Source of the DNA: an uncultured Gammaproteobacteria bacterium
Lineage (GTDB): Bacteria > Patescibacteriota > Microgenomatia > JAMCZE01
DNA: 64,000 nucleotides
Assembly (NCBI GenBank): GCA_964576435.1
Contig: CAZNUP010000002.1
Coordinates: 107,302 to 171,301, forward strand
Reading direction: 5' to 3'
Below are positions 7,103-28,949 of this stretch, in pieces. A program made the position numbers and the translations under genes. The notes under the pieces are model-generated. The model searched no databases, was not told the DNA's origin, and was given only the letters and a program-made list of their open reading frames with translations. Within the stretch, counting starts at the first letter, position 1. The number at the start of each line of letters is the position of its first letter.

Positions 7103-7684
7103 TTAGTCAAGCTGTGTAACTGTGACCTTGTCGTAGTGGACTGGTTGGGGAGAGTTTTGGGTTATAACTGCTGAAACTTTAAAACTAGATGAGTTACATA
7201 CTAAGGTCTGCTTTGTCCAATTTCTTTCAGTTTGGGGAACGGTAAATTTTTCGCTGCAGAGAGTATTGCCTTTATAGCCTAAAAGCTCCAGCGCCCCACG
7301 AGTTTCAGCTAAGGTTGAAGTTGGTTTTACCCACACTATTAATTTGAGGGGTTTTAGATCAGTGGTGTAGTTGTCCACATAGAAGAGGTGACTCCTAATA
7401 CTTACCGCTTTTGGACTTGTTGATTCAGGAACAGTTGTTTTGTTGGGTGTTAACTCCAAGGAATAGACACCATCTAATAGATCTTGTGAGCGTCTAATTT
7501 GTTTTTCAGGATTAGTTGCTTGAATTATTATCCAATCATTGGGTAGAAGAGAACCATTTTGGAGAGACCAAGATTCAAAGCTGTAATTTGATGGATAACT
7601 TTTTTCTTCAGGAGTAGCTATCGCTTGCTTTGGAAAGAAAGTTAAAAAAAGGAGCAGGAATAGTGGAATAAATAGTTTAACCAC
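7103..7684 (-). CDS. Hypothetical secreted protein (signal peptide) inserted between nusG and rplK
   Basis: N-terminal MVKLFIPLFLLLFLTFFPKQAIA. Confidence 0.45.
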   Translation of the reverse strand: MVKLFIPLFLLLFLTFFPKQAIATPEEKSYPSNYSFESWSLQNGSLLPNDWIIIQATNPEKQIRRSQDLLDGVYSLELTPNKTTVPESTSPKAVSIRSHLFYVDNYTTDLKPLKLIVWVKPTSTLAETRGALELLGYKGNTLCSEKFTVPQTERNWTKQTLVCNSSSFKVSAVITQNSPQPVHYDKVTVTQLD

Positions 7685-7696
7685 TAAGTTTGTAAA

Positions 7697-8278
7697 TTAT
7701 AGTTTGGATACTTGTAAGAAATCCAATTCGACCGGTGTTTCGCGACCAAAGATTGAAACGAGTACTTTTAGTTTACCGTGGGCTTCGTCAATTGAATCTA
7801 CAGTTCCTAAAAAGTCAGCAAATGGACCGTCAATGATCTTAACTGCTTCGCCATTTGAAAATGCAGCTTTGAATTTTGGCGCCTGTAATTGACTAAATTT
7901 AACAATTGCATCAACTTCTTTTTCAGAAAGGGGAGTTGGGCGGTTTCCAATGCCTACAAATGCTGTGACACCTGGTGTTGTTCTAACAACTAACCATGAA
8001 TCATCTTCTAAAACCATTTGGACAAGGATATATCCTGGGAAGATCTTTTCTTTGACATCTTCTTTTTTGCCTCTTTTGACAGTGACGGTGTCTCTAGTTG
8101 GAACAACGATTTCAAAGACTTTGCCACCAATATTCATGGCGTCAGCTCTTTGCCTAATAGCTGCAGCGACTTTGTTTTCGTGACCAGAGTAGGTGTGCAA
8201 GACAAACCACTTGGCATTATCTGGTGCTTTTGGAGTTTCTTCGATAACTGGTGTTTGTGCTTGTGCTTGGTCGTCCAT
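7697..8278 (-). CDS. nusG: Transcription termination/antitermination factor NusG
   Basis: [18 protein letters not shown] domain. C-terminal KOW ([18 protein letters not shown]). Confidence 0.85.
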
Positions 8279-25499: not shown

Positions 25500-25613
25500 A
25501 TGCAGAGGTTTACCAACAAATTCGAACGTGTTTTCGTAGAAAATGTCTTTATGTTGGCTCGCTCCGCTCGCCTCTATCTTAGTGTCGACCCGCTGCGGCG
25601 GGGGCCTCCGCTT
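25500..25613 (+). repeat. Repeat A, left arm of inverted-repeat pair A/A' (about 113 bp, GC-rich)
   Basis: The reverse complement at 27045..27156 matches with a handful of mismatches and one 2-nt indel, as read by eye. Confidence 0.6.
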
Positions 25614-25763
25614 TAACGAATTTTTTGCGCGCGCGACACAGCACAGGAGCTTCCCGGCCAATTTGGGCGAAATTGGCCGCAATCGGCCGGAATGGTGGTA
25701 TTCGGCCGCTTGGGTTCATTGTGTGATTGCACAACAGGGATTTTGGTTTAGTGAAGTCATGTT

Positions 25764-25813
25764 AGCATAGTGCTATGCTGTAATGCGAGTATTCGTTCCA
25801 CAAATGTTATAAT
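25764..25813 (+). promoter_or_regulatory. Perfect palindrome AGCATAGtgCTATGCT (25764-25779), a candidate operator, plus an extended -10 TGtTATAAT (25805-25813) 9 nt before the ATG of ORF 25823
   Basis: Read directly from the sequence. Upstream are GC-rich hairpins: CGGCCAATTTgggcgAAATTGGCCG and CGGCCGGAAT...ATTCGGCCG. Confidence 0.35.
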
Positions 25814-25822
25814 TGAAGCGTT

Positions 25823-26227
25823 ATGGCAACACCTGAAGAAAAGCTACTTAATTGGGCTAGGGAAAGGGAAGCTAATCCTCCTTCTCCATCTGTTCCAAAA
25901 CCTCCACTTGGTCAAGCCAAGGACGTTTTGATGCATTTTTTGGGAGGCTCGATTGGTTCCAGGAAGGTTACTTTAAGCGAAGGAAAGCCAACTTCAAAGA
26001 CTGCGGATGAGTTGAGGACAGAATTAAAAGAGGCACTTGGAGAATTTGACACGACAACTTTACCGGAAGATCGAGCTAGACAATATCAACAGATTGTTGG
26101 AGAACTAGATGGAAATCTGGATGATTTAACTCATTTGAATTTGATTGTAAAACACTATCACAATTTTGCCGCAGATCGTCCCCTGGATGCTCCTGAAATT
26201 AAAAAAGTGCGAAGAAAGCAAAAATAA
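25823..26227 (+). CDS. Hypothetical protein (134 aa), cargo of the A/A' segment
   Basis: ORF track. No family recognised by eye. Confidence 0.4.
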   Translation: MATPEEKLLNWAREREANPPSPSVPKPPLGQAKDVLMHFLGGSIGSRKVTLSEGKPTSKTADELRTELKEALGEFDTTTLPEDRARQYQQIVGELDGNLDDLTHLNLIVKHYHNFAADRPLDAPEIKKVRRKQK

Positions 26228-26237
26228 TATGTATTTC

Positions 26238-26903
26238 TCATGTTGTCACTTTTCTAGCGCGGTATGCTTCAATTCGTTTTGGAAGATCGTATAAATATTC
26301 GAGCAAGTAGTCTAGAAATTCAGTAATGTCGTTTGCGTCTTTAGGGTCGACACCGGAATCATTTGGGTCAGAGTGAGTTGCCTCATTCCCCAACAATCTA
26401 ACTTCATTGGACCAGTCAATCATTAGTGGGGGTAATAAACCCTGTTTTCCTAGATATTCAATTTCCTCCAAAAGATTTGCGCCTTTTGCCTTTTTATCTC
26501 GAAGCGCTGATTGCATCGAACTACGTGCCATTACCGAAGCTGCATCCCAATTCTCGTCAGTGAGGGATTTATGAGCTTGTAGCCAGTTTCTGCCAACGGC
26601 CGGTGGCCAGTGATCGGGGGATTTCGTGTATTTTAATGGAAAAGGAAGGACGCGATAATCATGGAGACTGTGACTACCACTGTATTCGCTTGATGACCAT
26701 AACACCATCACATAGCCAGCACAATTGCCGCATTTTAATGTGTCAAAATTAAGAACCTTACGGTTATTTGATTTTTTCTTTTCAGAATGATGTGCTGTTG
26801 AAAAATTACCTCTTTCCCCACAGAATGCGCATTCAATTCGATATATTGCAAGCGAGTCACCGGATTCTCCAATATGTTCACCGAGATCCCACCAACTGTT
26901 CAT
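26238..26903 (-). CDS. Zinc-ribbon protein with a C-terminal DUF4145-like domain, cargo of the A/A' segment
   Basis: CAFCGERGNF...CGNCAGY Cys pairs at the N-terminus. C-terminal LLGNEATH...LLEYLYDLP fits the DUF4145 GNxxAH pattern as recalled. Confidence 0.45.
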   Translation of the reverse strand: MNSWWDLGEHIGESGDSLAIYRIECAFCGERGNFSTAHHSEKKKSNNRKVLNFDTLKCGNCAGYVMVLWSSSEYSGSHSLHDYRVLPFPLKYTKSPDHWPPAVGRNWLQAHKSLTDENWDAASVMARSSMQSALRDKKAKGANLLEEIEYLGKQGLLPPLMIDWSNEVRLLGNEATHSDPNDSGVDPKDANDITEFLDYLLEYLYDLPKRIEAYRARKVTT

Positions 26904-27044
26904 AGCGGCATTTTACCAGAATTTTTGTGTCGGTTTGTATTGTTTTGTCTTCTTGAAAACTTCTTGACTTAAGACGACACTGAAAAAAAATCGCGAAAAT
27001 TTTTGCGTTTTCTTTCACACACAGGATTCGAGCCGACCTTTTTC

Positions 27045-27156
27045 AAAGCGGAGGCCCGCCGCAGCGGGCCGACACTAAGATGACGGCGAGCGGAGCGAGC
27101 CAACATAAAGACATTTTCTACGAAAACACGTTCGAATTTGTTGGTAAACCTCTGCA
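27045..27156 (-). repeat. Repeat A', right arm, inverted copy of A. Similarity to the tRNA-Tyr locus copy extends left to about 27020.
   Basis: Reverse complement of 25500..25613. 27022-27038 cgagccgaccttttt is the reverse complement of aaaaaggtcggctcg found in B' and at 40878. Confidence 0.6.
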
Positions 27157-27257
27157 CAGAGAGACACAGACTCACAAGAAGGGGCGGCGATCCGCGCGCC
27201 CGCAACCGCGCGGAGCGCCGCAAAGGGCTGTTTCAAAACCGCGCTGAGCTGCCGATT
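27152..27257 (+). repeat. Repeat B, left arm of pair B/B'. It overlaps the end of A' by 5 nt (ctgca).
   Basis: ctgcacagagagacacagactcacaagaaggggcggcgatccgcgcgcccgcaaccgcgcggagcgccgcaaagggctgtttcaaaaccgcgctgagctgccgatt. Its reverse complement lies at 28712..28827. Confidence 0.6.
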
Positions 27258-27329
27258 AGAAAATTAAAAAGCAGGAAAGAAAACGCAAAAATTTATTTAG
27301 GAACAGGAAAGTTACTCAAAACTGCACAA

Positions 27330-28949
27330 ATGAAATATATTGGCTATTGCCGAAAATCAACAGACGAAAAAGACAGACAGGTTTTGTCGATTGACGCACA
27401 AATTGCAGAACTCAAAGAATTTGCTCAGCGTGAACGCTTAGATGTTGTGGATTTTGTTGTTGAGGCAAAGACTGCCAAAGAACCGGGCAGGGAAAAATTT
27501 GCCGAAGTCTTGAAAAGAATTGAAAAAGACGAAGCACAAGGTATCCTTAGCTGGCATCCAGACAGACTTGCAAGGAATTCCGTGGATGGTGGGAGAGTGA
27601 TCTATCTTTTGGACACCGGGAAACTTTTGGATCTCAAATTTCCTTCATTTTGGTTCCAGAACACCCCTCAAGGCAAATTCATGCTCGGAATGGCCTTCAA
27701 TCAGAGCAAATATTATGTGGATTCCTTATCTGAAAATGTCAAAAGGGGAATCAGACAAAAACTTCGGCAGGGAATTTGGCCCAAACAAGCGCCGCTTGGC
27801 TACAAAAACAATCCCAAGACTAAAGGAATTGACATTGACTCCGAAACTGCACCTGTTGTCAAAAGAGCTTTCGCTCTTTTTGCCCAAGGCAACAAATCTT
27901 TCACTGAAATTGCCGATTTTTTCTTGAAGCATGGGATCACAGGAAAAACCGGGAAGAGATTACATTTGTCCGAAACCAAGAGACTACTGGGGAAAACTTT
28001 CTATATTGGCCATTTCAAATTTGGTGGTGAGCTTTATCAAGGAAGCCATAAGTGTTTTATCTCAAAATCCACTTTTCAAAAAGTTCAAGAGAGGCTGAAG
28101 AAAATTGAGCGACCAAGAAGGAAAGGCCACAATTTTCCTCTCGTTGGAATCGCTAAGTGTGGAGAATGTGGTGGTGCAATAACTGCCGAATCTCATCCCA
28201 GATTCTATCCCCGAACGGGAAGAAAAGTGGATTTTGTCTATTACCGCTGCACGAAAAAATTTGGCACATGCTCTCAGCGCTACACTCCGGCAGTAGATTT
28301 TGAGTCACAACTTGAAGAGTTGTTGTTTTCTGCATCTCTGCCAAATTCCTGGCAGAAAAAATGGAAAGATTGGTTGGATCGGGATGAAAAACTGGCGAAA
28401 GAATCCGCAGAGAAAAACCTGGCTGGTTATCAAGTCAGGATTGCTGACTTAGACAAAAAACAAAATCTACTGCTAGATACTTTCTTAGAGGGGACAATTG
28501 ATGAGGGAATGTTCAAAACGAAAAAGAACGAAATGTTTGAGAGAAAACAGAAACTTGAAGAAGAACTTTTGCAAGTGAAAGCTAGTGGCGCAGGTTGGCT
28601 CGAACCAATGAAAGACTTCATGGAAACGGCTTCACAGCTGGAAAAAATCGCGCGCGCAAAAAATTCCAGCGAAGATTTGCGAAACTTCGCCAAAAAGGTC
28701 GGCTCGAACTACTTTTTACAGGATCAGCAGCTCAGCGCGGTTTTGAAACAGCCCTTTGCGGCGCTCCGCGCGGTTGCGGGCGCGCGGATCGCCGCCCCTT
28801 CTTGTGAGTCTGTGTCTCTCTGTGCAGGGGCGGAAAGAATCGAACTTTCGTTGCGGGTTTTGGAGACTCGCGTCCTACCACTGAACGACGCCCCTTTATC
28901 CTGTTATTTTATCATTTTTATATGTTGGTGGTATAATCTATTTGTTTAA
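27330..28949 (+). CDS. Large serine recombinase (resolvase/invertase N-domain, recombinase domain and zinc ribbon)
   Basis: MKYIGYCRKSTDEKDRQVLSIDAQ (catalytic Ser region). ...ILSWHPDRLARN. Zinc ribbon CGECGG...YYRC. The track ORF opens at 27138 (no upstream stop); the Met at 27330 is preferred. The last ~80 codons read through repeat B' and the antisense tRNA-Trp before the first stop at 28950. Confidence 0.8.
   Translation: MKYIGYCRKSTDEKDRQVLSIDAQIAELKEFAQRERLDVVDFVVEAKTAKEPGREKFAEVLKRIEKDEAQGILSWHPDRLARNSVDGGRVIYLLDTGKLLDLKFPSFWFQNTPQGKFMLGMAFNQSKYYVDSLSENVKRGIRQKLRQGIWPKQAPLGYKNNPKTKGIDIDSETAPVVKRAFALFAQGNKSFTEIADFFLKHGITGKTGKRLHLSETKRLLGKTFYIGHFKFGGELYQGSHKCFISKSTFQKVQERLKKIERPRRKGHNFPLVGIAKCGECGGAITAESHPRFYPRTGRKVDFVYYRCTKKFGTCSQRYTPAVDFESQLEELLFSASLPNSWQKKWKDWLDRDEKLAKESAEKNLAGYQVRIADLDKKQNLLLDTFLEGTIDEGMFKTKKNEMFERKQKLEEELLQVKASGAGWLEPMKDFMETASQLEKIARAKNSSEDLRNFAKKVGSNYFLQDQQLSAVLKQPFAALRAVAGARIAAPSCESVSLCAGAERIELSLRVLETRVLPLNDAPLSCYFIIFICWWYNLFV
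28712..28827 (-). repeat. Repeat B', inverted copy of B. It ends 3 nt inside the 3' end of tRNA-Trp.
   Basis: Reverse complement of 27152..27257 at about 95% identity by eye. Direct similarity to the tRNA-Tyr flank (40878..41011) starts at 28684. Confidence 0.6.
28825..28895 (-). tRNA. tRNA-Trp (anticodon CCA)
   Basis: Manual fold. Acceptor AGGGGCG/CGCCCCT. D-stem GTTC/GGAC. Anticodon loop CU-CCA-AA. T-arm GAAAG-TTCGATT-CTTTC. No encoded CCA. Confidence 0.8.

Follow-up and report, generated by a model that had tools for sequence, protein, structure and literature searches.

Our results indicate that the two pairs of inverted repeats beside a tRNA-Trp gene in a 64,000-nucleotide stretch of patescibacterial DNA (the window; contig CAZNUP010000002.1, positions 107,302 to 171,301, assembly GCA_964576435.1) probably belong to a single integrated mobile unit of ~3.3 kb. 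The unit would extend from about position 25505 to position 28826 of the window, bearing the attachment (att) sites attL and attR at its ends and an inverted attP in its interior, and its own large serine recombinase would have inserted it at the 3' end of tRNA-Trp through a crossover at tRNA positions 71-72. The layout seen in the window is the usual form of the elements in a very large family. A preliminary description of this DNA had called its organization unlike that of any described element; our full-text literature searches likewise found no account of an integrase unit with an internal inverted attP, but the architecture is not unique to the window and recurs in relatives.

A mechanical repeat search recovered both of the repeat pairs reported in that description (A/A' and B/B'; Table 1), adjoining tRNA-Trp and 96 to 98% identical. 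A and A' align over 115 positions with 95.7% identity and one indel, all of their differences lying more than 70 nt from the outer end, and B and B' are 98% identical over 108 nt. The arms are GC rich (52 to 59%, against ~36% in the surroundings), as had been stated, and the additional inverted pair said to link the right flank of A to the left flank of B' is exact over 19 nt (I4). Other details needed correction. A' and B do overlap, but the stretch that they share is 8 nt (cctctgca, 27149-27156) rather than 5; B' extends ~6 nt, not 3, into the tRNA-Trp 3' end; and the nearly invariant 26-mer attributed to the repeats lies in B and B' alone, within a hairpin of 15+8+15 nt, and is absent from A. 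The gene content given earlier (a large serine recombinase, a DUF4145 gene, and an open reading frame [ORF] without matches) agrees with our Pfam and ORF analysis. The identical length of the two segments, remarked on earlier, is coincidence, since the segment between the a arms (the cargo segment) spans 0.58 to 5.5 kb in relatives. An Rfam search of the arms for structured RNA at E <= 1 returned tRNA alone.

Table 1. Positions in the window of the repeats, motifs, and genes of the putative unit and of its tRNA target
Feature	Position	Strand	Basis or remarks
Arm A	25501-25614		Distal copy of the a arm, reverse-complemented here; crossover window TGCAG, 25501-25505
Motif I4L	25618-25636		T-run/GCGCGCGC motif at inner edge of A; exact inverted copy of recombinase KIARAKN codons
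I4 pair	25618-25636 / 28648-28666		Exact inverted pair, 19 nt; repeat search
Cargo ORF, 134 aa	25823-26227	+	ORF call
Cargo gene, 221-aa DUF4145 protein	26238-26903	-	Pfam PF13643, E 3.8e-12
I3 pair	26997-27016 / 27275-27294		Exact inverted pair, 20 nt; repeat search
Motifs I3L and I6L	26997-27016 and 27027-27043		Inner edge of A'; I3L is an inverted copy of the motif preceding the recombinase start, and I6L of the KVGSN codons
I6 pair	27027-27043 / 28692-28708		Exact inverted pair, 17 nt; repeat search
Arm A'	27045-27156		Proximal copy of the a arm, putative P half-site; GTTCGAA 27130-27136; crossover window CTGCA, 27152-27156
Arm B	27149-27256		Proximal copy of the b arm; hairpin 27184-27221; forms the a-b junction with A'
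Motif I3R	27275-27294		36 nt upstream of recombinase ATG; conserved motif
Large serine recombinase ORF	27330-28949	+	Pfam, catalytic residues, homologs
Arm B'	28723-28830		Distal copy of the b arm; encodes recombinase C terminus; crossover window TGCAG, 28823-28827; hairpin 28758-28795
tRNA-Trp(CCA), intact	28825-28895	-	ARAGORN; Rfam 57 bits; T-loop and acceptor 3' strand form the putative target B half-site

The attachment sites were assigned by aligning three junctions per element, namely the far end, where a meets the host flank (a-x; A and the sequence to its left in the window), the internal a-b junction, and the junction of the tRNA with b (B' and tRNA-Trp in the window, where B' provides the tRNA discriminator and trailer). 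The internal A'-B junction is the exact sequence expected from joining the two element ends. From these alignments, the tRNA-b junction is probably attL, a-x is probably attR, and A'-B is probably an intact attP lying inverted between the cargo and the recombinase; one extra inverted copy of attP would thus produce both inverted-repeat pairs. The region common to the three junctions bounds the crossover, which falls within CTGCA (the portion identical across all three) in the window and is exactly GC (tRNA 71-72) in loci L042 and L044 of the survey described below.

In its outer ~35 nt, the a arm carries a conserved but degenerate version of a tRNA 3' end that mimics T-arm and acceptor (gaaatNcGTTCGAAttttt..aaacg..CAC). 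In essentially all loci, GTTCGAA in this mimic is displaced away from the junction, by 4 nt relative to the genuine T-loop of the neighboring tRNA (about 40 loci in total; the count for the 4-nt shift is 28 loci as scored plus 5 after correction of motif-matching artifacts). The shift is 5 nt in the tRNA-Gln subfamily (5 loci). Counted from a crossover at tRNA 71-72, the motif falls at half-site positions 13-19 on the tRNA side and 17-23 in the a arm. In the Listeria integrase, the zinc-ribbon-domain motif is found at bp 16-24 in attP and at bp 11-19 in attB, a shift of 5 bp (PMC3783163). The shift of the motif thus matches the published attP/attB geometry at the left half-site, where it was scored, with the a arm taking the part of a P arm and the tRNA that of a B arm. 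The b arm starts with a discriminator and a CCA-like trailer, and so the tRNA stays intact.

Serine-recombinase chemistry needs matching 2-nt overhangs, and the crossover window is without a palindromic dinucleotide in about half of the loci (TCAC, GTCCACA, CAACA). Taken together, these leave three reactions only: the entire unit may be excised, or either the recombinase segment or the cargo segment may be inverted, and neither segment can move separately; the internal attP being inverted, the segments can invert but not be deleted.

The proposal of an integrative element at a tRNA 3' end, made in the preliminary description, is borne out by the attP/attB arm geometry, by the use of 20 tRNA isoacceptors, by an empty site, and by clean insertions of the unit elsewhere. 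An empty tRNA-Trp site was found in one relative: L088, whose tRNA-Trp is 97.5% identical and whose HD-domain neighbor is 79% identical, carries no element at the site and has a terminator hairpin directly after tRNA-Trp. A metagenome scan with the tRNA-Trp 3' half found one empty site, in an unrelated genome (L085) with the same tRNA 3' half. In L001 (4314-8526) and L090 (366-6031), a complete unit (cargo, internal a-b, and recombinase) is lodged in the recombinase gene of another unit, exactly at the boundary of codons ~121 and 122, where FMLSI is encoded on one side and AFGQSKYY on the other, and the frame is kept; the precision of this insertion indicates that the unit inserts as one piece. 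Insertions of this type yield "double recombinase" proteins of 865 to 932 amino acids (P0001 to P0018, 18 of the top matches), and one subfamily seems to target the recombinase genes of resident relatives. L088 also contains a tRNA-Trp 3'-end-like remnant (~7548-7620) and a partial tRNA-Trp 5' half broken by a GC hairpin (~7830-7890), which may be scars of earlier elements.

The identification of the recombinase as a large serine recombinase stands, with the catalytic motif intact and three Pfam domains above their cut-offs (Resolvase, PF00239, E 3e-20; Recombinase, PF07508; Zn_ribbon_recom, PF13408). Residues Y6, R8, S10, D78, R79, and R82 are invariant in 20 homologs, and the closest solved relative is the SPbeta integrase (PDB search, E 6e-13); an exact look-up of the window recombinase matched no record. 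The element encodes ~499 codons of the protein, ending at the crossover (28826-28827), and itself contains no stop codon. The frame passes through B', and the remaining 40 codons are antisense through the whole of tRNA-Trp until the first stop, none occurring before 28949. The b arm codes for the last ~35 recombinase residues. Of 61 loci compared across the family, 59 show no stop in the recombinase frame along b as far as the tRNA, whereas stops interrupt the two alternative frames in 51 and 50 of them. This indicates that b is translated and that the stop always lies beyond the crossover. The conservation of the frame across the crossover is weakened as evidence of selection because the length of the b region is constant, which leaves the absence of stops as the sole strong signal. 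The tail in the integrated state is encoded by antisense tRNA and typically reads G-x-E-P.

The sequence beyond the crossover differs when the ORF is threaded into the reverse complement of a, rc(a), as it would be in a joined element. There, the frame acquires the tail (V/I)(F/Y)E(K/Q)(I/V)RT.F and then a stop after 11 to 16 codons in 24 loci; in the window the stop comes after 24 codons (TAG at 25580-25582, inside A). A tail of the rc(a) type ends about 6 of 120 database homologs. Downstream of this stop, a GC hairpin (GCGCGGCG-8-CGCCGCGC) is present in most loci, and the hairpin together with UUAUUUUUU is seen in 8 loci; both are weaker in the window. The a hairpin followed by the I4L T-run looks like an intrinsic terminator. 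Judging from these features, a complete recombinase gene end, with tail, stop, and terminator, would exist only when the element ends are joined, which argues, indirectly, for an excised circle.

In the tRNA sense, the order of the integrated parts would be tRNA-b, recombinase (antisense), rc(b)-rc(a), cargo, and a-x, with a as the P arm carrying the tRNA mimic and b as the P' arm. Recombination of attL with attR would release a circle in which the recombinase ORF crosses the rejoined att site and gains the short conserved tail and stop in rc(a), followed by the hairpin and T-run terminator. Integration would strip away the stop and terminator and point the recombinase gene head-on into the tRNA gene; it probably turns the recombinase down and stabilizes the insertion. 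Tentatively, we regard the internal attP as a switch that is seldom used: were the recombinase segment inverted, a full gene would be reassembled under the tRNA promoter. The internal attP may also serve as an operator or accessory site. A broader scheme, rather unlikely as a whole, is that the element senses its own state through the att-spanning ORF and terminator, such that the free circle and the integrated form would produce different recombinase mRNAs and tails. The internal inverted attP would then be a built-in switch and the palindromic arms accessory sites, making integration and excision reversible and self-limiting without a directionality factor, and the shifted tRNA mimic would have coevolved to permit retargeting to nearly every tRNA.

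How general this architecture is was examined among relatives of the recombinase, of which 7,277 were found at E <= 1e-3 among 8,000 candidates scored; nearly all of those with source names are from Patescibacteria, and at least 562 loci are in GTDB species representatives. For the family survey, 80 related loci (the L numbers used here) were fetched. In about 60 loci the recombinase is flanked by inverted repeats of the B/B' type (~100 to 120 bp). A convergent tRNA gene, on the opposite strand, lies within 260 nt downstream of the recombinase in 65 of 70 loci, representing 20 isoacceptors; no flipped case is among the other five, which have tRNA remnants, a run of N, or, in L014, nothing tRNA-like. 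An a-type arm stands directly left of B in every examined locus with a detectable B/B' pair, including those whose flank yielded no distal copy. Several genomes carry multiple units at different tRNAs, and the family is nearly absent from viral contigs (1 locus).

Several observations weigh against the integrated unit with an internal attP. A circle with two equivalent attP sites should integrate as two isomers, and only one isomer is found. The single-isomer bias needs selection or an asymmetry; the isomer seen is exclusively the one whose gene end is broken, which points to instability of the other, in which the recombinase would be intact and driven by the tRNA. The b arm has a weak inverted T-arm-like motif whose spacing is attB-like rather than attP-like, so that the P/P' assignment of b is uncertain. 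No circle junction, empty site (tRNA-x, ...ccgcccCTGCAtaaattctcc), or flipped segment of the window element was seen; Logan unitigs from two runs of the source community yielded the tRNA-b junction only. These unitigs match the window at 100% across tRNA-b, with 25 b-specific bases, and therefore no empty-site branch exists above the unitig threshold. Canonical attL x attR recombination by serine integrases depends on a directionality factor, and no recognizable one is present. Finally, arms of ~100 bp far exceed an att site of 40 to 50 bp, and conservative recombination cannot homogenize them.

The homogeneity in question is pronounced. The two b copies within an element are identical in 28 of 45 cases (median, 100%), while the median identity of a b arm to that of the nearest other element is 76%, and 42 of the 45 B arms are closest to their own partner. 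Mismatch between the b copies stays at 1 to 3% across the first ~100 nt (~80 to 90 nt in a) and then rises sharply at a family-wide boundary. Gene conversion after aborted cleavage and selection for a multiprotein site of ~215 bp are both possibilities.

This pattern is one of several that speak for a role of the internal a-b junction and the long arms that is architectural or regulatory. By this explanation, the arms would bind extra recombinase dimers in the manner of Tn3 res accessory sites, or would serve as an operator for promoters that diverge from it, and would thereby set directionality or autoregulation without a directionality factor. Besides the sharp arm boundary at ~100 nt with its uniformly low mismatch, the palindromes in the arms are conserved and covary, the b hairpin that contains the 26-mer showing compensatory changes. 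I3, I4, and I6 are family-wide motifs at fixed positions; I3 is located on both sides of a-b, upstream of the recombinase and also of the first cargo gene, and I3R is possibly a promoter or 5'-untranslated-region element. In 46 of 61 loci, precisely 139 nt separate the conserved GSN codons and the tRNA T-loop, and no directionality-factor candidate was found among the cargo segments. However, an operator would not need a full and perfect 215-bp copy of attP, and a few loci persist in which the internal site is absent or diverged (L057, L066, and L068). Such a role as the primary explanation is possible but doubtful.

Some observations on these sites and motifs may be added. The KVGSN codons (28692-28708 in the window) contain a T-loop-like TCGAAC, 136 to 139 nt from the tRNA T-loop in most loci, which could be an accessory binding site; an inverted copy of this stretch (27027-27043) lies 1 nt from the inner edge of A'. 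In L057 (5680-6000) and L068 (4860-5180), the recombinase is found beside a tRNA without a recognizable a-b junction upstream. These are decayed or simpler forms, and their lack of a-b indicates that the internal site is not required for persistence. In L066 (5700-6000 versus 7390-7500) and L091 (1-110 versus 1560-1660), the upstream and 3' b arms come from different subfamilies; these are apparently chimeric units exchanged at the conserved I3 motif.

The preliminary description had compared the segments to shufflons or phase-variable cassettes, that is, to segments routinely flipped by the recombinase so as to vary gene expression. Inversion is chemically possible: each segment is bounded by inverted att-type sites with matching cores, for which the chemistry gives inversion and not deletion, and the arms are kept nearly identical. 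Known invertible systems employ a serine invertase of ~190 amino acids with 26-bp sites and an enhancer, or the tyrosine recombinase Rci with 19-bp sfx sites; the enzyme here, at ~500 amino acids, and its sites, at ~215 bp, have neither the small enzyme nor the short sites of such systems. The orientation of the segments does not bear out the comparison. The recombinase segment is in the same orientation in 65 of 70 loci, and the reverse arrangement, with a codirectional tRNA upstream, is found in 0 of 59. By the I3, I4, and I6 markers, the cargo segment has one orientation in the 24 loci checked, none being inverted (one is without the I4 marker). No alternative gene ends or promoters that could be shuffled were found in the segments, and the cargo is unrelated between loci. 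A few contigs (L083, L084, and L091) do show the recombinase reading into rc(b)-rc(a), but these are short assemblies (L084 at k = 55, below the length of the inverted repeats) or chimeric (L091), and their orientation is untrustworthy. Routine shufflon-like flipping is thus not supported by the assemblies and is quite improbable.

Two further arrangements bear on orientation. The array in L090 is explicable without a flipped or circular form. L082 (4322-9500) contains opposed recombinase modules, the left one adjoining tRNA-Lys and the right one adjoining a degenerate tRNA-like sequence and then a type I restriction-modification system. A flipped recombinase segment was considered for this locus and rejected, as it consists of two converging canonical units with one common cargo segment; this is the arrangement that a deletion between a copies in direct orientation, one from each of the converging units, would leave.

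It could also be supposed that two independent elements with terminal inverted repeats (TIRs) lie side by side, one with b ends that carries only the recombinase and a nonautonomous one with a ends that carries the cargo. Each segment indeed has perfect terminal inverted repeats, the inner ends of the cargo hold relics of the recombinase gene end (I3, I4, and I6), which suggests descent from a recombinase module, and modules form chains (L082 and L090). However, where the crossover window is nonpalindromic, as in about half of the loci, neither segment could be excised or inserted by itself, no locus has b arms on both sides of the recombinase without an adjacent a, and the nested insertions contain the whole unit, all of which make this explanation very improbable. 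A transposon of the insertion-sequence (IS)-like or TIR type, including IS607 and TnpX/TndX, was rejected as well: the unit ends a and b are unrelated, each inverted-repeat pair is internal, and no solitary module with intact b arms was found. Inverted-dimer, hairpin, or dumbbell single-stranded DNA intermediates as the source of the inverted repeats were likewise rejected, because they predict junctions that were never observed (tRNA-rc(a), rc(b)-x, and hairpin-capped ends).

An assembly artifact or chance repeats can be dismissed as having negligible probability: assemblers can be misled by inverted repeats that exceed the k-mer, and many related contigs stop at the repeats, but more than 60 assemblies made independently in different projects have the same architecture, many of them at k = 141 (above the inverted-repeat length), and independent unitigs match the window exactly across tRNA-b. 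Among the contigs that start or end at or within the b arm are L002, L019, L025, L037, L047, L055, L059, and L074, and in metagenome-assembled genomes of Patescibacteria the elements repeatedly cause assemblies to break next to tRNA genes. The frame upstream of the recombinase ATG (27138-27329 in the window) is open for 64 codons through the B arm, and the database proteins P0020, P0025, and P0072 are annotated with N-terminal extensions of this kind, which are probably artifacts of the GC-rich arm.

The cargo of the element is hypervariable. A second repeat pair adjoins the first in 36 loci and encloses unrelated genes, including methyltransferase, MFS, ABC-ATPase, and HopA1-like genes, and among these 36 cargo segments there is no conserved gene, whether accessory gene or candidate directionality factor. 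In the window, the 134-amino-acid ORF has no Pfam or PADLOC match and is not conserved in other elements. The DUF4145 protein has an N-terminal CxxC...CxxC motif and matches the PADLOC model PD-T7-4 (E 2.6e-9; model positions 14-190 of 211), and thus resembles a PD-T7-4-like predicted defense gene.

Comparison with known systems places the recombinase closest to the phage-type large serine integrases (A118/LI, phiC31, Bxb1, and SPbeta SprA), with which it has in common the domains (Resolvase, Recombinase, Zn ribbon, and coiled-coil region), the catalytic serine, a motif placed more distally in the element arm by about half a helical turn, and a presumably conservative crossover at a short common core. 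Unlike those integrases, it targets a tRNA T-loop and acceptor end, its arms are ~100 bp where theirs are 20 to 25 bp, its ORF crosses att, a second inverted attP lies inside the element, no directionality factor is visible, and the element is not phage borne. Tycheposons are flanked by direct repeats of full or partial tRNA sequence, and 474 of 501 use tyrosine recombinases (bioRxiv 10.1101/2020.12.28.424599). The elements described here are like tycheposons in being small cargo elements at tRNA genes, in recombinase lineages that split by tRNA target, and in their arrays, degenerate remnants, and defense or niche cargo. They differ in having a large serine recombinase, a degenerate and shifted tRNA mimic, and inverted repeats, with no direct tRNA repeat; identity with tycheposons was rejected, the repeats being inverted and merely tRNA-like.

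SSV1-type integrase genes are split by integration, and phage lambda uses sib retroregulation; both systems have tyrosine recombinases. As in these, integration here would alter the 3' end of the recombinase gene or mRNA and tie expression to the free or integrated state, but only the last codons, stop, and terminator would be exchanged, and a spare copy of the junction is kept. The yeast 2-micron plasmid encodes FLP and has two inverted FRT repeats, and the Hin recombinase gene lies within its own invertible segment. The predicted circle resembles these in having two inverted sites that separate two unique segments, with the recombinase gene between inverted sites; both isomers are readily seen in those systems, whereas one orientation dominates here, and the enzyme class and site size differ. 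Staphylococcal cassette chromosome (SCC) arrays have direct repeats at the rlmH 3' end and no internal inverted attP. The family described here is like SCCmec/Ccr in its large serine recombinases, specific chromosomal site, and tandem accretion of cassettes, and unlike it in the presence of the internal inverted attP. These elements are set apart from the known systems by the tRNA mimic in the P arm, the 100-bp arms, the att-spanning ORF, the attP kept inside in inverted orientation, and the fact that no directionality factor is visible.

Large serine recombinases are prized for genome engineering, and the control of their directionality is an active structural question. A family with thousands of members offers many natural pairs of enzyme and site whose targets can be inferred, as attB is set by a universal and predictable tRNA feature and the attP/attB code is readable in the mimic shifted by 4 to 5 bp. 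It also provides a test case for how DNA architecture, or an ORF passing through att, can determine the direction of recombination. Patescibacteria have tiny genomes and few known mobile elements, and the element described here looks like a major vehicle for accessory and defense genes among them.

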